Notes under the pieces: model-generated
What the model saw: the letters and a program-made list of their open reading frames with translations, nothing else
What the model was told of the DNA's origin: nothing
Database searches by the model: none
Position numbers and translations under genes: made by a program
Shown: positions 25,166 to 51,654 of the stretch, one piece after another
Layout of the letters: every line of letters starts with the position of its first letter
Position numbering within the stretch: position 1 is the stretch's first letter
Origin: an uncultured Nitrospirales bacterium
Lineage (GTDB): Bacteria; Hydrogenedentota; Hydrogenedentia; Hydrogenedentales; GCA-2746185
Direction: 5' to 3'
Assembly: GCA_964620045.1 (NCBI GenBank)
Contig: CAZUJL010000015.1
Location: forward strand, 15,203 to 79,202
DNA length: 64,000 bases

Positions 25166-26737
<1,572 letters not shown>

Positions 26738-26766
26738 CAAGATTTATCTGCGCGCGCGGCCCGCGT

Positions 26767-26796
26767 TTGACACTCCCCCGCGCGGAATGGCAGCAT
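26767..26796 (+). promoter_or_regulatory. Sigma70-type promoter of the gcv operon
   Basis: TTGACA (26767-26772), 18-nt spacer, extended -10 TGgCAGCAT (26788-26796). Confidence 0.55.
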
Positions 26797-26802
26797 TTTC
26801 GT

Positions 26803-26886
26803 TCGCCGCCGCGACTGGCGTTCACGTGGGCTGCCACGAGGGAGCGGATGGCGCTGGAAGGTCCCTTTTAGCCGCACGCCTGGGCC
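26803..26886 (+). ncRNA. ZMP/ZTP riboswitch (pfl motif)
   Basis: P1 CGCCGCCGC/GCGGATGGCG; J1/2 CGCGACTGGCG; P2 CGTGG-gctg-CCACG; AGGGAGCG; linker; P3 GCCGCACGCCTGGGC whose loop CGCC can pseudoknot with GGCG. Confidence 0.9.
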
Positions 26887-26968
26887 GCGGAGGGCACGCT
26901 TAAGCCGAGCTTGGGCGTGGCACCCAATGGCGATTTGTTTCGGGACGCTTCTTTTTTCGGAGGGCTGC

Positions 26969-28042
26969 ATGCAAAAGACCCCGTTGTACGACGAGCACGT
27001 CCGCCTCGGCGGCAAAGTCGTCGACTTCAACGGCTGGGCCCTGCCCGTCCAGTTCGCCGGCATCGTGAAGGAACACACGCAGTGCCGCACGCAGGTCTCC
27101 CTCTTCGACTGCTCGCACATGGGCGAGTATCTCGTGAAGGGGCAGGACGCGATCGCGAAGTACGACCGCGAGATCATTTCCGACACGAGCAAGATTCCGC
27201 TCGGCCGTTGCCGTTACGGCGCGATCCTGAACGAACAAGGCGGCATCTTGGACGACGTGATCACGTTCCGCATGGCGGCGGATGAGTTATACGTGGTGAC
27301 GAATGCCGGACCGCTCGCGTCGGTCACCGCGCGCTTCTGCGACAAGAACCCCGGCATGACGCATATCTCATACGAGACCGCGAAGATCGACGTGCAGGGT
27401 CCGCGCGCGCAGGAGATCGTGCTGAAGGCTGGATTCAGCGCGGCCAAGACGCTCAAATATTTCAACGCGACGTGGACCACGTGGGAAGGCCACAAGGTCC
27501 TTCTCTCGCGCACGGGCTACACCGGCGAACTCGGCTACGAACTCTTTATGGCGAACGATCTCGCCGTGAAGATGTGGAACATATTTCTCGATCTTGGCGT
27601 GGAGCCGGCGGGTCTCGGCGCGCGCGACACGCTGCGTACGGAAGTGGGCTACAACCTCTCTGGTCAGGACTTCGACAGCACGATCACGCCGCTCGAAGCG
27701 AACATGGAAAATTACATCGCGTGGGACACGGAATTTGTCGGCAAGTCCGCGCTGCAGAAGAAAAAAGACGCAGGCGACTATGCGCAATTGGTGGGCATAG
27801 TGACCCATTCGAAACAAAAGCCGCAGCACGGTTTCGAAGTGCAGCACGACGGCAAGGTCGTCGGCGAAGTGACCAGCGGCACCTTCGGGCCTAGCCTCGG
27901 CCACGGCGTGGGTCTGGCGCGCGTGCCTGCGGTGCTCGCGAAACCAGACACAAAGCTGACCTGCGGTCCGCGCGGACTCGAAATCGAAGTGGCCACAACA
28001 CCTTTTTATAAAAACGGCACCTGCCGGGCGAACGTCGCCTGA
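26969..28042 (+). CDS. gcvT: Glycine cleavage T protein (aminomethyltransferase)
   Basis: KTPLY, FNGWALPVQF, LFDCSHMGE, SRTGYTGELGYE, GLGARDTLRTE and VTSGTFGPSL motifs; start ATG 26969. Confidence 0.96.
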   Translation: MQKTPLYDEHVRLGGKVVDFNGWALPVQFAGIVKEHTQCRTQVSLFDCSHMGEYLVKGQDAIAKYDREIISDTSKIPLGRCRYGAILNEQGGILDDVITFRMAADELYVVTNAGPLASVTARFCDKNPGMTHISYETAKIDVQGPRAQEIVLKAGFSAAKTLKYFNATWTTWEGHKVLLSRTGYTGELGYELFMANDLAVKMWNIFLDLGVEPAGLGARDTLRTEVGYNLSGQDFDSTITPLEANMENYIAWDTEFVGKSALQKKKDAGDYAQLVGIVTHSKQKPQHGFEVQHDGKVVGEVTSGTFGPSLGHGVGLARVPAVLAKPDTKLTCGPRGLEIEVATTPFYKNGTCRANVA

Positions 28043-28065
28043 GCAGATAGGCAAGGGGAGCAAAT

Positions 28066-28455
28066 ATGTATCCAAAGAACCTGAAGTACACCAACGAACA
28101 CGAGTGGGTGCGTGCCGAAGGTGACACATACACCGTCGGCATCACGTCGTACGCCGTCGAGCAACTCGGCGACATCACGTATGTCGAGCTGCCGAAGGTC
28201 GGCGAAAAAGTGAAGCAGCACGGTGAAGCGGCGACGGTCGAATCCGTGAAGGCCGCCAGCGACGTGTATGCGCCGGTCGGTGGCGAAGTCGTGGCGATCA
28301 ACGACGCACTCGACGAAACGCCGGAACTCGTGAACGAGAATCCATACGAGCAGGGCTGGTTCTTCAAGCTCAAGGGCGTGAGCCAGGCGGAACTGTCCGG
28401 CCTGATGGACGCCGCGGCGTACCAGAAATTCGTTGAGGAGGCGCACGACAAGTGA
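28066..28455 (+). CDS. gcvH: Glycine cleavage H protein
   Basis: HEWV, GITSYAVEQLGDI, VESVKAASD lipoyl lysine, NENPYEQGW. Confidence 0.97.
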   Translation: MYPKNLKYTNEHEWVRAEGDTYTVGITSYAVEQLGDITYVELPKVGEKVKQHGEAATVESVKAASDVYAPVGGEVVAINDALDETPELVNENPYEQGWFFKLKGVSQAELSGLMDAAAYQKFVEEAHDK

Positions 28456-29735
28456 GCTGGGCTCCTCTTACCGACACCGATCGCGACGAGATGCTGGCGA
28501 CGATTGGCGTCAAACGAATCGAAGATCTGTTCGACACGATCCCGGCTTCGGCGAAGGTGAAGTCGTGGAATCTGCCGGCCGGCATGTCCGAGATGGCCGT
28601 GCGCGAAGAACTCGGCCGGCTGGCGGGAACGAACACTCCCGCGCCGATCAGCTTTTTGGGCGGCGGATTTTACGATCACTACATTCCGGCGGCGGTCGAT
28701 GCGCTATCCGGCCGTAGCGAGTTCTACACGGCCTACACGCCCTACCAGCCCGAATGCGCGCAGGGCACGCTGCAGAGCATCTACGAGTACCAAACCTCGA
28801 TCTGCCGCCTGACGGGCATGGAATTCGCCAACGCCTCCCTGTACGAAGGCGGCACGGCGGTGTTCGAAGCGGCCACGATGGCGATGCGCCTCACCGATCG
28901 CAGCAAGATCGTCGTGCACTCCTCGCTGAGCCCGGTCTATCGCAAGCAGCTCGACACGCACACGGCGAACCTGCCGGTGCAGATCGTGAGCGGCGATGAT
29001 CCGACGGATGCGGCCTGCGTGATCGTGCAGAACCCGTCCTTCCTCGGCGAGTTGAGCGACTTCACCGAACTTGGCAAGCGCTGCCAGGCCACTGGCGCGT
29101 TGCTGGTGGTTTCTTTTTATCCCATCTCTCTCGGCATCGTGAAGACGCCGGACGAAATGGGCGCGGACATTGCCATCGCCGAAGGCCAAAGCCTCGGAAT
29201 TCCGCTCGCCTTCGGCGGACCCTACCTCGGCATTCTCGCGACCTTGAAGAAGCACGTGCGCAAGATGCCGGGCCGTCTCTGCGGCGCGACGACGGACACC
29301 AAAGGCCGTCGCGGCTTCGTGCTCACGCTACAGGCGCGCGAGCAACACATCCGCCGCGCGAAGGCGATGTCAAACATCTGCTCGAACCAGGCCCTGTGCG
29401 CCTTGCGTGCGCTGATCTTTATGTCGCTCTACGGCAAGGAAGGTTTCCGCGATCTCGCGCGGCAGTGCCATTCCAAGGCCGAGTACCTCAAGAAGAAGCT
29501 GATTTTTGCGAAGGTGATTTCCAAAGGCGCGACGTTCAATGAATTTGCCGTGCGCCTGCCGAAGAATGCGGATGATGTGGTGAAGAAACTCGCCGCGCAG
29601 GGTTACCAGGCGGGTCTTCCACTCGCGTCGGTTGGCGCCGGCGAAGCGAATGACCTGCTCATCGCCGTCACCGAGCGCCGCACCAAAGCCCAACTCGACG
29701 CCTTCGCGAGCGCCCTGGAGGCCGCATGCAACTGA
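28452..29735 (+). CDS. gcvPA: Glycine dehydrogenase subunit 1
   Basis: FLGGGFY, YTPYQPE..QGTLQ, ANASLYEG, GIPLAFGGPYLG, LQAREQHIRR and SNICSNQ motifs. Confidence 0.96.
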   Translation: MSWAPLTDTDRDEMLATIGVKRIEDLFDTIPASAKVKSWNLPAGMSEMAVREELGRLAGTNTPAPISFLGGGFYDHYIPAAVDALSGRSEFYTAYTPYQPECAQGTLQSIYEYQTSICRLTGMEFANASLYEGGTAVFEAATMAMRLTDRSKIVVHSSLSPVYRKQLDTHTANLPVQIVSGDDPTDAACVIVQNPSFLGELSDFTELGKRCQATGALLVVSFYPISLGIVKTPDEMGADIAIAEGQSLGIPLAFGGPYLGILATLKKHVRKMPGRLCGATTDTKGRRGFVLTLQAREQHIRRAKAMSNICSNQALCALRALIFMSLYGKEGFRDLARQCHSKAEYLKKKLIFAKVISKGATFNEFAVRLPKNADDVVKKLAAQGYQAGLPLASVGAGEANDLLIAVTERRTKAQLDAFASALEAACN

Positions 29736-31168
29736 TTTACGAAAAATCCCGACCCGGCCGCCGTGCGATCACGCTGGACGCCTTGGATGTACCCGAAGCG
29801 ACGCTCCCGGCGAACGTCAGCCGCGCGGAATCCGCCGGCCTGCCCGAAATCGCCGAGATCGACGTCGTGCGTCACTTCACGGCGCTCTCGGATCGCAATC
29901 TCGGTCTCGACGCGCATTTCTATCCGCTCGGGTCCTGCACGATGAAATATAATCCGAAGATCGCCGAGGTCGTGGCCGCGCTGCCGGGTTTTGCGGCGCT
30001 TCATCCGCACCTCTCCTCGAGCGCGGCGACCTGGGCGCAGTGCCAGGGTGCGTTTGAGCTGATTTACGAAACCGAAAAAATGCTCGCCGAGATCGCGGGC
30101 ATGAGCGCCTGCTGTCTACAGCCGATCGCGGGCGCGCACGGCGAACTCGCCGGTACGCTGCTGATCGCGGCCTACCACCGCGAGCGCGGCAATACGCACA
30201 AGACGAAGATCATCGTGCCCGATTCCGCGCACGGCACGAACCCGGCCAGCGCCGCGATTGCGGGCTATGAAATCGTCGAGATCCCGTCGAACGATCGCGG
30301 GCTCATGGACGTCGAAACCTTCAAGGCCGCGCTGGACGACAATGTCGCCGGCGTGATGACGACCTGCCCGAACACGCACGGTCTCTTCGAGCCGGAGATT
30401 CAAGAAATCGCGCGGCTGTCGCACAAGGCCGACGCGCTGCTCTATTACGACGGCGCGAACCTGAACGCGATCCTGGGCGAATGCCGCCCGGGCGATCTGG
30501 GCTTCGACGTGATGCACTACAACCTGCATAAAACCTTCGCCACGCCGCACGGCATGGGCGGCCCCGGCAGCGGTCCTGTCGGCGTCAGCGAGCGCCTGGT
30601 TCCCTATCTCCCCGGCCCGCGCGTTGTGAAGAAGGGCAATGCCTTCGCGCTCGAGATGCCGCCGAAGTCCATCGGCAAGATGGCGCCGTTCTTCGGCAAC
30701 TTCGGCATGGCGGTGCGCGCGTACGCGTATATGCGCCACCTCGGGAAGGACGGCCTTCGCCAGGTCTCGCACGCGGCCGTGTTGAATGCGAACTACATCC
30801 ACGCGCGGCTCAAGGGCGCATATCAGTCGGCGTTCAACAGCCGCTTCATGCACGAGTGCATCTTCGACGCGACGCCGCAGGCCAAGAAGGGCTCGCGCGC
30901 GATGGACATCGCCAAGGCGCTGCTCGATTACGGCTACCACGCGCCGACCGTGTACTTCCCGCTCACGGTGCACGAAAGCATCATGATCGAACCGACGGAG
31001 ACCGAGTCGAAAGAAACGATGGATGCGTTCTGCGATGCGATGCTCGAAATCGCAAAGCGCATCGAGGCCGAAGGCGACCCGTACAAGGATGCGCCGTTCA
31101 CCACGCCGGTGAGCCGGCTCGACGAAGCCAAGGCTGCGCGCCAGCTCGATTGTTGCTACCGGCCATAA
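29726..31168 (+). CDS. gcvPB: Glycine dehydrogenase subunit 2
   Basis: YPLGSCTMKYNP, SAHGTNPASA, YYDGANLNA, HYNLHKTF (PLP lysine), LNANY and IEPTETES motifs. Confidence 0.96.
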   Translation: MQLIYEKSRPGRRAITLDALDVPEATLPANVSRAESAGLPEIAEIDVVRHFTALSDRNLGLDAHFYPLGSCTMKYNPKIAEVVAALPGFAALHPHLSSSAATWAQCQGAFELIYETEKMLAEIAGMSACCLQPIAGAHGELAGTLLIAAYHRERGNTHKTKIIVPDSAHGTNPASAAIAGYEIVEIPSNDRGLMDVETFKAALDDNVAGVMTTCPNTHGLFEPEIQEIARLSHKADALLYYDGANLNAILGECRPGDLGFDVMHYNLHKTFATPHGMGGPGSGPVGVSERLVPYLPGPRVVKKGNAFALEMPPKSIGKMAPFFGNFGMAVRAYAYMRHLGKDGLRQVSHAAVLNANYIHARLKGAYQSAFNSRFMHECIFDATPQAKKGSRAMDIAKALLDYGYHAPTVYFPLTVHESIMIEPTETESKETMDAFCDAMLEIAKRIEAEGDPYKDAPFTTPVSRLDEAKAARQLDCCYRP

Positions 31169-31169
31169 C

Positions 31170-31237
31170 CCGGGAACGTCAATCTCCCGATTGGCGATTT
31201 CAATTGCATGCGCCAATCGGGAGATTGGCGTTCCCGG
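31170..31237. repeat. 27-bp inverted repeat element
   Basis: CCGGGAACGTCAATCTCCCGATTGGCG (31170-31196) pairs with CGCCAATCGGGAGATTGGCGTTCCCGG (31211-31237), one G-U. Confidence 0.88.
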
Positions 31238-31251
31238 CAGCGTGAGGTGCC

Positions 31252-31962
31252 ATGTGGCTGCTTGACCATACCTGCGCAACGCCGGCCGAGAACCTCGCAC
31301 TGGACGAGGTCCTGCTGGACGAAGCGGAAGCCGGGCGACTGGACGAAGTCCTCCGGTTCTGGGAAAGCCCGACGTATTTTGCGGTCCTGGGGCTGAGTCA
31401 GGCGGTCGACACCCACGTCTACCGCGAAACCTGTGACCGGGACGGCGTCCCCATCCTCCGCCGTTGTTCTGCGGGTGGATGTGTACTCCAGGGGCCGGGC
31501 TGCTTGAACTTCTCCCTCATCCTGCGACTCGACCGCCCCGGCTGCGGATCGATCACGGCCTCGTACCGGACCATCCTGGGAAGCATCGCCACCGCCCTAA
31601 TTCCAACGGTGACGTTAACGGGAATTTCGGACCTGGCCATCGACGGCCGCAAGGTATCCGGTAACGCCCAGCGCCGGCGCGGCAAGTTCTTTTTGCACCA
31701 CGGCACCCTGCTCCTGAATTTCGACATTTCGAAATGCAGCACGTACCTTCGCGAACCCGACGATCGTCCGGAGTATCGAGCGGCGCGTTCGCACGGCGCC
31801 TTCATACGGAATCTAAACCTAACACAAGATGCGACGAAGATTTCTGTTTCGAGATTGTTTCAGGCGTCTCAATTGCTGTCTTTTTCGAGCGATCTCGCAG
31901 GCAAGATGACTTCGTTGGCAGGTTTGAAATACAACAATTCTGCATGGATCTTTCGAAAGTAG
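31252..31962 (+). CDS. Lipoate-protein ligase/lipoyltransferase, catalytic domain only
   Basis: ENLALDE, RFWE, RRCSAGGCV, KVSGNAQ and HHGTLL motifs; no C-terminal LplA domain. Confidence 0.88.
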   Translation: MWLLDHTCATPAENLALDEVLLDEAEAGRLDEVLRFWESPTYFAVLGLSQAVDTHVYRETCDRDGVPILRRCSAGGCVLQGPGCLNFSLILRLDRPGCGSITASYRTILGSIATALIPTVTLTGISDLAIDGRKVSGNAQRRRGKFFLHHGTLLLNFDISKCSTYLREPDDRPEYRAARSHGAFIRNLNLTQDATKISVSRLFQASQLLSFSSDLAGKMTSLAGLKYNNSAWIFRK

Positions 31963-44690: not shown

Positions 44691-44730
44691 CCGCCGGTAT
44701 CTTTGATAAGGTGCCGGCGGTTTCATTTTT
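44691..44730 (+). terminator. Rho-independent terminator after the recombinase-domain gene
   Basis: 13-bp stem CCGCCGGTATCTT/AAGGTGCCGGCGG (with G-U), TTTCATTTTT tail. Confidence 0.75.
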
Positions 44731-44749
44731 CGCCGCAGAGGATTCATCC

Positions 44750-45676
44750 GTGACTTCGAATTTCCGCATCGCGCTCATCGGCCAGGCGGCCTTTGGCGAA
44801 GCTGTATTGAACGCGCTCGTGAAGAATGGCGAGACCATCGCCGGTGTATTTTGTCCGCCCGACAAGGAAGGCAAGCCCAGCGACGCGCTCAAGATCGCGG
44901 CCGACAAGCACGGCCTGCCGTCGTTCCAGTTCCGCCGCATGCGCTCGCCGGAGGCGATTGCGGCTTTCCGCGCGCTGAACGCCGACCTCGGCGTGATGGC
45001 CTTCGTGACGGACATCGTCCCCGCGGAAATCCTGAATGCGCCGCGCCTCGGCACGATCCAGTACCACCCCTCCCTGCTGCCGCTCCACCGCGGGCCGAGC
45101 AGCATCAACTGGCCAATCATCCAGGGCCGCACGACAACCGGCCTCAGCATCTTCTGGCCCGACGCCGGTCTCGACACGGGCCCGATCCTCATGCAAAAAG
45201 AAACGCCAATTAGCGCCGACGACACCCTCGGCACGGTGTACTTCGATCGGCTCTTCCCGATGGGCGTGGAGGCCATGGCCGAGTCCGTGGCGCTGGTGAA
45301 GGCCGGCCGCGCGCCCAAGACCGCGCAGGACGAGTCCCAGGCCACCTACGAGGGCTGGTGCAAGGCGGAGAACTCCATCGTCGATTGGGCGCAGCCCGCA
45401 GCCACCGTACACAACCTCATCCGCGGCGCCGATCCCAGTCCCGGGGCGGGCACCACGTTCAAGGGCGCCCCGATCCAGCTTTTCGGCTCCAAACGCGATT
45501 CTGGCGGCCCAGCGGCCCCCGGCGAGGTCATTGGCGTGGGCCCCGACGGCCTGCGCGTGTCCGCCAAGGACGGCGTCGTCCGCATTGCGAAGGTGAAAGG
45601 CGGCGCGGGCAAGCTGGCCGCAGCCGATTGGGCAGCACAGGCCGGTCTCAAGCCCGGCGATCGCCTCGGCAGCTAG
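44750..45676 (+). CDS. Formyltransferase-family protein resembling the 10-formyl-THF dehydrogenase N-terminal domain
   Basis: IALIGQAAFG, QYHPSLLPLHRG.SSINW, SIFWPDAGLDTG, LFPMGV and ATYEG motifs; GTG 44750. Confidence 0.85.
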   Translation: MTSNFRIALIGQAAFGEAVLNALVKNGETIAGVFCPPDKEGKPSDALKIAADKHGLPSFQFRRMRSPEAIAAFRALNADLGVMAFVTDIVPAEILNAPRLGTIQYHPSLLPLHRGPSSINWPIIQGRTTTGLSIFWPDAGLDTGPILMQKETPISADDTLGTVYFDRLFPMGVEAMAESVALVKAGRAPKTAQDESQATYEGWCKAENSIVDWAQPAATVHNLIRGADPSPGAGTTFKGAPIQLFGSKRDSGGPAAPGEVIGVGPDGLRVSAKDGVVRIAKVKGGAGKLAAADWAAQAGLKPGDRLGS

Positions 45677-48304: not shown

Positions 48305-48877
48305 TTAACGCTTTCCCAGACCGAGAAAATTCTGAATGATCCGCTTGCCCGCGTGCGTCAGGATGCTCTCGGGATGGAACTGCACGCCCCAGATTGGGTG
48401 CTTCTTGTGCGCCACCGCCATGATCACCTGATCGTCGGTCTCGGCGATAATCTCCAAATCGCCAGGGCAACTCTTCCGTTCAATGATCAGCGAATGGTAG
48501 CGCGTCGCGTCGAACGGGGTCTCTATTCCGGCAAACAGCGCATTGCCCGTGTGCCTGATTTTGCTCACCTTGCCGTGCATGATCTTGTCCGCGCGGATCA
48601 CATTCCCGCCGAAGACTTGCCCGATGCACTGGTGACCCAGACACACGCCCAAGGTCGGAATCTCCGGCCCGAGGGCCTTGATAATCTCGTTGGAGTTGCC
48701 GGCCTCGCTCGGCGTGCAGGGTCCCGGCGAAATCACGATCTTCGCGGGCTTCAGTTTCCGAATGCCGGCGGCGTCGATCGCGTCGTTGCGGTAGACGCGA
48801 ATGTCCTTCTCGAACTCGCCGAAGTACTGCACCAGGTTGTAGGTGAAGGAATCGTAGTTGTCGATCATCACAATCAT
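48305..48877 (-). CDS. trpG: Anthranilate synthase component II (glutamine amidotransferase)
   Basis: IDNYDSFTYNL, ISPGPCTP, GVCLGHQ, TRYHSL and GVQFHPES motifs. Confidence 0.95.
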   Translation of the reverse strand: MIVMIDNYDSFTYNLVQYFGEFEKDIRVYRNDAIDAAGIRKLKPAKIVISPGPCTPSEAGNSNEIIKALGPEIPTLGVCLGHQCIGQVFGGNVIRADKIMHGKVSKIRHTGNALFAGIETPFDATRYHSLIIERKSCPGDLEIIAETDDQVIMAVAHKKHPIWGVQFHPESILTHAGKRIIQNFLGLGKR

Positions 48878-50355
48878 GATTCCAACCCCCGCTCGGCGAA
48901 CTCGACCGCCAGGAACATCGCCTTGGCCTTGTTGCGACTCTCTTCGTACTCCGCTTCCGGCACGCTGTCGTACACAATCCCGGCACCGGCCTGCAGGTGC
49001 GCTTTGCCGTCCTTCACGACCATCGTGCGGATCAAACTGCAGGAATCCATATCGCCGTTGAAACTGAAGTAGCCGCAACCGCCGCTATATGGCCCGCGGC
49101 GCAGGTTCTCCAGTTCGTCGATGATTTCCATCGCGCGAATCTTCGGCGCGCCGCTCACCGTGCCCATCGGGAACGTGGCCCTCAGCGCGTCGAAAGCGTC
49201 CGCGTCCTTGCGCATCGTGCCTTCGACCTGGCTCACGATGTGCATTACATGCGAGTAGCGCTCAATCACCATGAGCTGGGTCGGATGTACGGTCCCGATC
49301 TCGCTCACGCGGCCGAGATCGTTCCGGCCGAGGTCCACGAGCATGATGTGCTCGGCCCGTTCCTTCTCGTCGGCCATCAGCTCGGTTTCGAGTGCGTTGT
49401 CTTCTTCGCGTGTTCCTCCGCGCTTGCGCGTGCCCGCAATCGGGCGCACCATGCAGGTGCCGCCCTTCACTTGCGTCATCACTTCGGGGCTTGAGCCGAC
49501 CAGCGAAAATTCGGGGAACTGCATCAGGATCATGTACGGCGAGGGGTTCACACAACGCAGCGCGCGGTAAAGATTCACCGGGCTGTTGTACACATTCCGC
49601 TCGAAGCGCTGCGACAGCACCACCTGAAACACGTCGCCCGCGCGGATGTACTCCTTCGCCTTCTCCACCAGTCCACAGAACTGGTCTTTCGTGAAATTGG
49701 AGCGCACGGTCGTATCGAAGGCCGCGCCGTGCACGTGTTCGTCCGTAACCACCACCGGCTGGCGCAACTTCGCCTGCAGGGCGTCGATCTTGCCGACAGC
49801 TTCCACGTAGGCCGCGTCCGCGTCGCCTTGCACGTGCGCGTTCGACACGATCATCACGCGGTTGCGCACGTGATCGAAAATCAGCAACGTGTCGGTGATG
49901 TAAAAATAGAGGTCCGGCAGGTTCAGCGGATCGGGGTTCTTGTCGGGCAGCTTCTCGAAGAAGCGCACATGATCGTATGACATGTAGCCCACCGCGCCGC
50001 CGTGAAATTCAGGCAAGCCATCCACTTTCACGGGCTTGTACGAGTTCATCAGCTGGCGCAGATCGTCCAGGGGCTGCTCAGATTCGTAGCTCTCCGTCGC
50101 GCCCTTGCGCAGCACAGTCACCTGCTTTCCGCGCGACTTGAACACGATCGACGGGTCCGCGCCCAGGAACGAATAGCGTCCGATCACATCCGCCTGTTCA
50201 ACGCTTTCCAGCAGGAACGCGCGATCATGTCCGCGCGAAATTTTCAGATACGCCGCCACCGGCGTTTCGAGGTCCGCCACGATCTCGCGGTACACCGGCA
50301 CCAGGGCGCCCGGGGTCGCGAGCTTGCGGAATTCATCCAGAGTAGGTCGATGCAT
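48874..50355 (-). CDS. trpE: Anthranilate synthase component I
   Basis: FLLES, FQVVLSQR, NPSPY, PIAGTR, EHIMLVDLGRND, HVMHIVS and GTVSGAPK motifs. Confidence 0.95.
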   Translation of the reverse strand: MHRPTLDEFRKLATPGALVPVYREIVADLETPVAAYLKISRGHDRAFLLESVEQADVIGRYSFLGADPSIVFKSRGKQVTVLRKGATESYESEQPLDDLRQLMNSYKPVKVDGLPEFHGGAVGYMSYDHVRFFEKLPDKNPDPLNLPDLYFYITDTLLIFDHVRNRVMIVSNAHVQGDADAAYVEAVGKIDALQAKLRQPVVVTDEHVHGAAFDTTVRSNFTKDQFCGLVEKAKEYIRAGDVFQVVLSQRFERNVYNSPVNLYRALRCVNPSPYMILMQFPEFSLVGSSPEVMTQVKGGTCMVRPIAGTRKRGGTREEDNALETELMADEKERAEHIMLVDLGRNDLGRVSEIGTVHPTQLMVIERYSHVMHIVSQVEGTMRKDADAFDALRATFPMGTVSGAPKIRAMEIIDELENLRRGPYSGGCGYFSFNGDMDSCSLIRTMVVKDGKAHLQAGAGIVYDSVPEAEYEESRNKAKAMFLAVEFAERGLES

Positions 50356-50853: not shown

Positions 50854-51654
50854 TCATGAGCCCGCCTTCACGGCCGCCGGGATATCCGACAGCCGCACCG
50901 AAACGCCGTGCTCGGCCAAAAACTCCTTGGCCTGCCGGATCGTGTATTCGCGGAAATGAAAAATGGACGCCGCCAGCGCCGCGTCCGCCCCGCCTTCGTC
51001 GAGCGCCGCGCGCAGGTGTTCCAGCGTACCCGCGCCGCCGCTCGCGATGACGGGCACGCTCACGGAATCGGCAATGCGGCGCGTCAGCGGGATGTCGTAG
51101 CCTTTTTTCGTGCCATCCTGATCCATGCACGTCAGCAGGATTTCGCCCGCGCCGCGCTTGGCGACTTCTACGGCCCACGCCACCGGCTCCAGCGGCGTAA
51201 CCCGCCCACCGTCGCGCCCGCCGTGGCTTTTTACGATGTACTGGCCGCCCTCGATTCTCTTGGCGTCGATCGCGACCACGATACACTGTGAGCCGAAACG
51301 GTCCGCGGCACGGTTCACGAAATCGGGGTCCTGAATGGCCGGGGTGTTGATCGAGACCTTGTCCGCGCCCGCGCTCAGCAGCCGCCGAATGTCGTCCAGC
51401 GTGCGAATACCCCCACCCACGCACAGCGGCATGAAGGCCTGCTCGGCCGTGCGGCGCACGACGTCGACCATGGTATTGCGGTTGTCGGTCGAGGCCTGGA
51501 TGTCGAGGAAGACGATCTCGTCGGCGCCTTCTTCGTCGTAGCGGCGCGCGATTTCGACCGGATCGCCTGCGTCACGCAGGCCGAGAAAGTTTACGCCCTT
51601 GACCACGCGCCCTTCGGCGACATCGAGGCACGGAATGATGCGCTTGGTCAGCAT
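50854..51654 (-). CDS. hisF: Imidazole glycerol phosphate synthase cyclase subunit
   Basis: [44 protein letters not shown] and ASGGAG motifs. Confidence 0.97.

Follow-up and report, generated by a model that had tools for sequence, protein, structure and literature searches.

The DNA analysed here, hereafter the window, is a stretch of 64,000 nucleotides (nt) of contig CAZUJL010000015.1 from a Hydrogenedentota-type bacterium. It holds an operon for the glycine cleavage system (GCV), gcvT-gcvH-gcvPA-gcvPB, with a gene of the lipoate ligase type behind it, and the 5' leader of gcvT carries an aptamer of the class that recognizes ZMP/ZTP (5-aminoimidazole-4-carboxamide riboside 5'-mono- and triphosphate). 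A preliminary description of this DNA had proposed that the gcv operon begins with a ZTP riboswitch and not with a glycine riboswitch; our analyses supported the proposal and extended it, as the arrangement turned out to be the rule across Candidatus Hydrogenedentota. On the comparisons reported below, it is probable that the 5' end of the gcvT-gcvH-gcvPA-gcvPB messenger RNA (mRNA), which may include the ligase gene, is a genuine ZMP/ZTP-sensing riboswitch. The elements of the aptamer and the genes of the operon are listed here by their positions in the window.

26802-26892, + strand: ZMP/ZTP aptamer RF01750 (Rfam 44.8 bits; 46.1 bits on R1, a covariance model built from the clade; helix covariation in 74 homologues)
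26804-26812 with 26844-26853, + strand: helix P1, 9 bp with A26848 bulged (Rfam alignment)
26810-26820, + strand: motif element CGCGACUGGCG (direct reading of the sequence)
26817-26820, + strand: pseudoknot 5' strand GGCG, after GACU (invariant in 74/74 homologues)
26825-26829 with 26834-26838, + strand: helix P2 (Rfam alignment)
26839-26846, + strand: motif element AGGGAGCG (direct reading of the sequence)
C15-U16 with G40-G41 of the aptamer, + strand: pairing (Rfam alignment)
26871-26873 with 26883-26885, + strand: helix P3 (Rfam alignment)
26871-26885, + strand: motif element GCCGCACGCCUGGGC (direct reading of the sequence)
26877-26880, + strand: pseudoknot 3' strand CGCC in the P3 loop, inside the conserved CGCCUGGGC (Rfam alignment and homologues)
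26969-28042, + strand: gcvT, aminomethyltransferase, 357 amino acids (aa) (Pfam GCV_T 1.4e-71; NCBIfam 355.6, cut-off 300)
28066-28455, + strand: gcvH, lipoyl carrier protein (Pfam; NCBIfam GcvH 174.8, cut-off 117)
28452-29735, + strand: gcvPA, glycine dehydrogenase subunit 1 (Pfam; NCBIfam GcvPA 556.8, cut-off 364)
29726-31168, + strand: gcvPB, glycine dehydrogenase subunit 2 (Pfam; NCBIfam GcvPB 695.5, cut-off 441)
31252-31962, + strand: protein with a lipoate-protein ligase/octanoyltransferase-type (LplA/LipB-type) catalytic domain, 236 aa (Pfam LplA-B_cat 4.4e-35)

The whole 64-kb window was searched against the 4227 families of Rfam 15 at their gathering thresholds, and the ZMP/ZTP riboswitch RF01750 (pfl motif) was the sole match. 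It covered 26802-26892 on the + strand, scored 44.8 bits where the gathering score is 39, extended over the full length of the model (positions 1-86 of 86) and had an E-value of 4.4e-4 against the 4227 families. Comparison with this family had been suggested in the preliminary description, which had also read the elements of the pfl/ZTP motif in the gcvT leader; all of them were present where it had placed them. With the leader alone (26650-27050) and a permissive limit of E<=10, RF01750 was returned at E=2.8e-6 and the only other match was to a long non-coding RNA at a meaningless 4 bits. The claim that a glycine aptamer is missing also held, since the glycine riboswitch RF00504 gave no match at its gathering score in the window and none at E<=10 in the leader, and no tetrahydrofolate (THF) aptamer was found in the leader at E<=10.

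The conserved ligand-pocket segment CGCCUGGGC and the pseudoknot strands were found in the window at 26817-26820 and 26877-26885. Helices P1, P2 and P3, the GGCG/CGCC pseudoknot and CGCCUGGGC are the same as in the ZTP riboswitches located at glyA, folD, purH, fhs and pfl and, to judge from these elements, the window aptamer is a canonical, ordinary member of a well-known class. It departs from the consensus by the bulged A in P1, by an unusual GCUG loop on P2 and, in the junction that follows P2, by an A at a position where G is normally conserved. The CGCC at 26877-26880 would be the strand expected to swap pairing partners.

The aptamer ends 76 nt before the start of gcvT, on the same strand. 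All four GCV proteins exceeded the curated NCBIfam cut-offs, and the split-P type operon is complete for T, H, PA and PB; the L protein gene lpdA is not part of it. The gcvPA gene overlaps the gcvH stop by 4 nt and gcvPB overlaps gcvPA by 10 nt, which implies translational coupling. The 236-aa ligase-like protein scored below every NCBIfam equivalog cut-off. Its gene may be the last of the operon; the 83-nt gap behind gcvPB contains a weak hairpin and no convincing terminator. The first start of the gcvT open reading frame (ORF), at 26927, was rejected; the ATG at 26969 was adopted instead. From this start the alignment with every relative begins at residue 1, and the gene called independently in Logan assemblies encodes a GcvT of the same length, 357 aa.

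Relatives were collected by a GcvT search over one genome per species (GTDB representatives), which yielded 80 loci with 44-78% identity. The database labels of 57 of them read Candidatus Hydrogenedentota, Hydrogenedentes or Hydrogenedens, and the remaining 23 carry the labels "uncultured Nitrospirales/Nitrospiraceae" or "uncultured bacterium" and, by sequence identity, are scattered among the named loci. The covariance model R1 was built from the leaders of 28 relatives and run on all 80 loci. It matched directly 5' of gcvT in 72 of the 78 loci having upstream sequence, and 71 of the 78 leaders (about 90%) held a sound aptamer scoring 48-88 bits, while the aptamer of locus L017 was degenerate (29 bits on R1, under the Rfam threshold). 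No R1 match was found 5' of gcvT in the other six loci, L003, L024, L055, L058, L062 and L068. Two of these, L055 and L062, contain isolated GcvT-like genes (46-49% identity) that are neither followed by gcvH nor preceded by an aptamer and that probably encode paralogous aminomethyltransferases and not the GCV T protein. Rfam confirmed RF01750 in 24 of 25 relatives' loci tested (41-69 bits); it detected neither a glycine riboswitch nor a THF riboswitch in these 25 loci, nor a tandem with a glycine or THF aptamer in the relatives with long leaders.

The gene order gcvT-H-PA-PB was conserved throughout the relatives, and the ligase gene adjoined gcvPB in 40 of the 64 loci with enough sequence. 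The frequent adjacency of the ligase fits the operon, because GcvH is inactive without its lipoyl group. In locus L067 a second ZTP aptamer was present about 3 kb from the gcvT aptamer (2574-2667, - strand, Rfam 63.8 bits), of the same sequence type as the gcvT aptamers and upstream of a purH-like gene for AICAR formyltransferase (AICARFT); the clade therefore appears to have an ordinary ZTP regulon. The lowest Rfam scores were those of the window and of its near relatives L002 and L004 (44.8, 41.2 and 44.0 bits). The aptamers of L005, L006 and L011 contain insertions of about 25-30 nt between the GGCG strand and P2, apparently an extra hairpin, and those of L005 and L006 still reached 53-56 bits on the Rfam model.

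The structure was also examined in an alignment of 74 homologues, which was fitted to the model and therefore favours the structure. In this alignment 89.6% of the cells were in standard pairs, against 40-49% when the partners were slid by 1-3 columns; 13 pairs showed compensatory changes and none of 500 shuffles matched any observed measure. Most of the covariation lay in P1, where 10 of the 12 pairs had compensatory changes, and P2 and the core of P3 were nearly invariant. The GGCG and CGCC strands were complementary in 74/74 homologues, with 99.7% of the cells paired; being invariant, they offer no covariation evidence for the pseudoknot. Chance is excluded as an explanation, because the aptamer precedes gcvT in 71 of 78 loci and 13 pairs carry compensatory changes that 0/500 shuffles reproduced.

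Upstream of P1 two candidate promoter boxes were recognized.

26767-26772, + strand: candidate -35 box TTGACA (direct reading; a like box is kept in relatives)
26788-26796, + strand: candidate extended -10 element TGGCAGCAT (the TGGCAnnnT motif is kept in relatives)

A TTGAC-like box occurred at equal distance from the aptamer in 64 of 72 related leaders and TGGCAnnnT at a fixed distance 5' of P1 in 62, both boxes being found together, about 17 nt apart and 5' of P1, in 56. Conservation of the boxes at a fixed distance from P1 suggests that the aptamer starts the mRNA, and we infer a transcription start near 26803. A scan of the window for the sigma-70 consensus did not report the TTGACA at 26767-26772, because the -10 hexamer is weak. 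The gene upstream of the leader, ending at 26737, encodes a tetratricopeptide repeat (TPR) protein. The paired boxes TTGACA and TGGCAnnnT(AT) may correspond to the consensus of house-keeping promoters in this phylum, and the low-GC Hydrogenedens loci show TTGAA...TGATATAAT in their place.

The region between aptamer and gcvT, which would act as the expression platform, contains the following elements.

26886-26968, + strand: expression platform (folds; two hairpins, U-rich run and Shine-Dalgarno sequence)
26895-26905 with 26909-26919, + strand: stable hairpin (predicted fold)
26929-26949, + strand: small hairpin (predicted fold)
26949-26957, + strand: U-rich run UUCUUUUUU (sequence)
26959-26964, + strand: Shine-Dalgarno (SD) sequence GGAGGG, 5' of the gcvT ATG (sequence)

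In the model of the class (Weinberg 2010, together with structural work on ZTP riboswitches), the ligand stabilizes the pseudoknot and P3 and thereby denies the 3' strand to a helix that blocks expression. Transferred to the gcv leader, a shortage of 10-formyl-THF would stall PurH and let ZMP/ZTP build up; the ligand would stabilize P3 and the pseudoknot of GGCG (26817-26820) with CGCC (26877-26880); the strand CGCC(U)GGGC and the 5' strand of P3 would be withdrawn from an alternative pairing with the SD and start-codon region; and the freed ribosome-binding site would permit expression of gcvT and of the translationally coupled genes behind it. The GCV would convert glycine and THF to 5,10-methylene-THF, FolD would turn this into 10-formyl-THF, and the loop would be closed. 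Ligand binding, the ON direction, control of translation rather than transcription and the inclusion of the ligase gene are all predicted from the sequences. We regard an ON switch acting mainly at translation initiation as the likely design, and this grade applies to the direction.

The evidence for the ON design came from the relatives. The pentamer AGGCG, the exact complement of CGCCU, was present in the SD region of 21 of 55 SD-bearing gcvT leaders and in 32 of 621 other SD-bearing ORF starts of the same loci (odds ratio 11, Fisher p ~1e-11, a value that overstates independence because the sequences are related and no phylogenetic correction was applied). In five leaders (L010, L031, L022, L025 and L026) RNAalifold predicted pairing of UGCCGAUCGCCU, which comprises the P3 5' strand and the pseudoknot strand, with AGGCG...AUGCGG, which comprises the SD and the start codon. 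The predicted SD/AUG helix of these leaders encloses two hairpins, one of them with two compensatory pairs. Among the minimum free energy (MFE) structures of 73 leaders, the SD paired with the pseudoknot/P3 strand in 29-31; since this survey is weak, weight was placed on the AGGCG enrichment and on the consensus fold of the subclade. In the window a co-linear duplex of 26865-26887 with 26958-26977 is possible, at -17.4 kcal/mol.

Several observations weigh against this reading. The window SD is GGAGGGC and not AGGCG; the window duplex is no better than those formed by the same strand with the start regions of other genes (-7.6 to -23.6 kcal/mol); forcing the sequestering duplex costs 2.7 kcal/mol over the MFE; and the fold energies of the window are no better than those of shuffles, with no significant z-score. 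The MFE pairing of the SD with the pseudoknot strand, found in 29 leaders, is modestly above the 20 of an SD-shuffle control. With its 44.8 bits, P1 bulge, G-to-A change and odd P2 loop, the window aptamer ranks near the bottom of the family, and the six related loci without an aptamer include one from the window's own neighbourhood, L003, with 69% GcvT identity. The ON direction put forward in the preliminary description thus drew support from the AGGCG enrichment and the SD/AUG helix of the relatives, whereas the window platform itself shows no distinguishing structure: several alternatives lie less than 3 kcal/mol apart and none stands out.

The same observations bear on the idea that the aptamer of the window lineage is a decaying relic that has lost its regulatory role, leaving the operon effectively constitutive. 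The lowest scores in the window, L002 and L004, the degenerate aptamer of L017, the lack of an aptamer in L003 and the missing AGGCG in the window SD all speak for it, and the switch may indeed be eroding in some of these lineages. The window, however, keeps all four pseudoknot pairs, CGCCUGGGC, GACUGGCG, P2 and a 9-bp P1, its score still exceeds the curated Rfam threshold and the promoter boxes are retained, so that we consider a relic improbable.

Slightly less probable still is an OFF switch, in which bound ZMP/ZTP, and hence folate stress, would repress the GCV, either sparing free THF or because the GCV runs reductively, in the glycine-forming direction. With the aptamer folded, the small hairpin at 26929-26949 followed by UUCUUUUUU can form, a ligand-promoted terminator is conceivable, and for a tandem moeA example ZTP switches of the OFF type have been predicted (PMC9481103). 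However, the leader forms an extended hairpin up to the same U-run just as readily in the absence of the aptamer, and the U-run at 26949-26957 does not discriminate, because hairpins precede it in both the bound and the unbound state. A consensus terminator scan found no terminator on the + strand of the window leader. A terminator reading for the window was dropped (a long, irregular hairpin at 26877-26947 and the small one at 26929-26949, which both end at the U-run, had z-scores of -0.5 and -1.3), and consistent terminators were not seen by inspection of 73 leaders. In the relatives the strand captured by the ligand complements the SD, which is an ON design, and repressing a one-carbon source during one-carbon shortage contradicts the logic of all other common targets.

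To assess how unusual the target is, a generic ZTP pattern, ACTGRCG..CCACNGNGNANC..CGYCTGGGC, was run over a metagenome collection and 120 loci that came up at random among the matches listed were analysed; the pattern is biased towards GC-rich aptamers whose pseudoknot has GGCG or GACG, and the loci are a sample and not a census. Tblastn with the GcvT, GcvH, GcvPA and GcvPB of the window found a relative within 3 kb downstream in 0/120 of these loci. The 95 downstream ORFs with 100 aa or more were annotated with Pfam, which returned serine hydroxymethyltransferase (SHMT/glyA) 21 times, AICARFT/purH 15 times (plus three archaeal-type IMP cyclohydrolases), aminoimidazole ribonucleotide (AIR) carboxylase/purE nine times, FolD eight times, pyruvate formate-lyase five times and formate-THF ligase twice, and no GCV family among the matches listed. 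Recovery of the textbook target set validates the sampling method; together with Weinberg 2010, the tally agrees with the usual ZTP targets named in the preliminary description, and the rarity of gcvT as a target, which it had left to be checked, was apparent in the same sample. By the rule of three, gcv targets are estimated to make up less than roughly 3% of such loci, given the 120 matches listed. One ZTP-motif match lay on an IMG/VR contig filed as viral (IMGVR_UViG_3300009388_000013, L081:937-999, - strand), with a glyA gene for serine hydroxymethyltransferase 42 nt later; this may be an auxiliary gene carried by a phage or, alternatively, a piece of bacterial DNA filed in the wrong place.

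The atypical target, absent from the 120 ZTP loci among the matches listed, might point to a ZTP-fold variant of changed specificity, sensing for instance a glycine- or folate-related metabolite, but this is very improbable, as Hydrogenedentota gcvT aptamers reach 53-69 bits when scored with the generic Rfam model and retain all highly conserved nucleotides of the pocket and the pseudoknot, no class-specific substitutions were seen in invariant columns and the purH-associated aptamer of L067 is of the same sequence type.

A canonical ZTP riboswitch in front of gcv shares with the classical members of its class the position in the 5' leader of a gene involved in the supply or use of one-carbon folates and the expected logic, in which 10-formyl-THF shortage raises ZMP/ZTP and turns expression ON. 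Control of gcv follows the same logic as that of glyA and folD, because GCV and FolD together yield 10-formyl-THF. Unlike the classical examples, this association is a fixed trait of an entire candidate phylum, and control in Hydrogenedentota appears to be translational, by sequestration of SD and AUG, in contrast to the ZTP models from Firmicutes and Fusobacterium, whose platforms are based on terminators. The target differs as well, the glycine cleavage system being absent from the gene lists consulted in Weinberg 2010, where no gcv term occurs in the first 200 of the 438 supplementary files. The pfl motif is not among the subjects of Sun et al. 2013. A ZTP riboswitch 5' of gcv genes was not found described anywhere in the searchable literature, a search to which the gene tables of Kim et al. 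2015 did not belong; the association is apparently unreported, although those tables leave room for an earlier mention.

The glycine riboswitch (gcvT motif, RF00504), as at gcvT-gcvPA-gcvPB of Bacillus subtilis, occupies the same position in the 5' untranslated region of the same operon, and both would be ON switches; fold and ligand are wholly different. It answers an excess of the substrate, glycine, whereas the window RNA would answer demand for the product, that is one-carbon or purine shortage. In E. coli, gcvTHP is controlled by GcvA/GcvR, PurR and Lrp, and purines repress gcv through GcvA/GcvR and PurR. Expression of the GCV is thus tied in both systems to purine and one-carbon status and not to glycine alone, but in E. 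coli protein transcription factors sense purine end products, while here an RNA would directly sense the stalled intermediate ZMP/ZTP. A link between the GCV and purine or one-carbon demand is a long-known idea from the E. coli GcvA/GcvR and PurR regulators; what is new is its implementation in RNA and its fixation across a candidate phylum. Tandem ZTP/glycine riboswitches upstream of a serine-biosynthesis gene in Bacillus and Oceanobacillus, described in 2022 as an A AND NOT B gate (PMC9481103), likewise join ZTP signalling to glycine within one-carbon metabolism; unlike them, the gcv genes here have a single ZTP aptamer and no glycine aptamer.

Hydrogenedentota therefore probably produce the one-carbon-generating GCV when formyl-folate is short. 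The broader proposition, that the GCV operon, often with a lipoate ligase that activates GcvH, was recruited phylum-wide as a core member of the regulon of the ZTP alarmone instead of being governed by glycine, and that this was previously unreported, stands in our judgement at an even chance. If it is true, the GCV would be a demand-driven one-carbon generator in these bacteria, and they would provide a clean natural example of one operon that answers an excess of its substrate in some phyla but a lack of its product in another. The glycine cleavage system would join the pathways under the ZMP/ZTP folate-stress signal, consistently in one uncultured phylum. To our knowledge Hydrogenedentota have no cultured representatives, and the finding offers a testable piece of their physiology, in which glycine would supply one-carbon units for making purines, in a regulated way. 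The finding also makes the wiring of gcv operons comparable across lineages (glycine riboswitch, GcvA/PurR and ZTP), cautions annotation pipelines against expecting a glycine riboswitch at every gcvT, and provides 70-odd leaders as a natural collection of ZTP platforms that are rich in GC and probably translational, a kind that has received less study than the terminator-type models.

Elsewhere in the window, further genes were noted, namely an Fmt-like formyltransferase, a consumer of 10-formyl-THF, at 44711-45676, anthranilate synthase component I at 48874-50355 and a HisA/HisF-family gene at 50854-51654. AICAR, the compound also called ZMP, is a product of the HisF reaction. The Fmt-like, anthranilate synthase and histidine-biosynthesis genes of the window had no Rfam match and, on this search, the gcv genes are the only ones predicted to be under ZTP control within these 64 kb. 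Among the related loci, two further structured RNAs were recorded: an Acido-Lenti-1 RNA just 5' of the gcvT promoter region in L061 (5161-5209, 42.3 bits) and a cobalamin riboswitch near the gcv locus in L065 (2437-2682, - strand, 93 bits).

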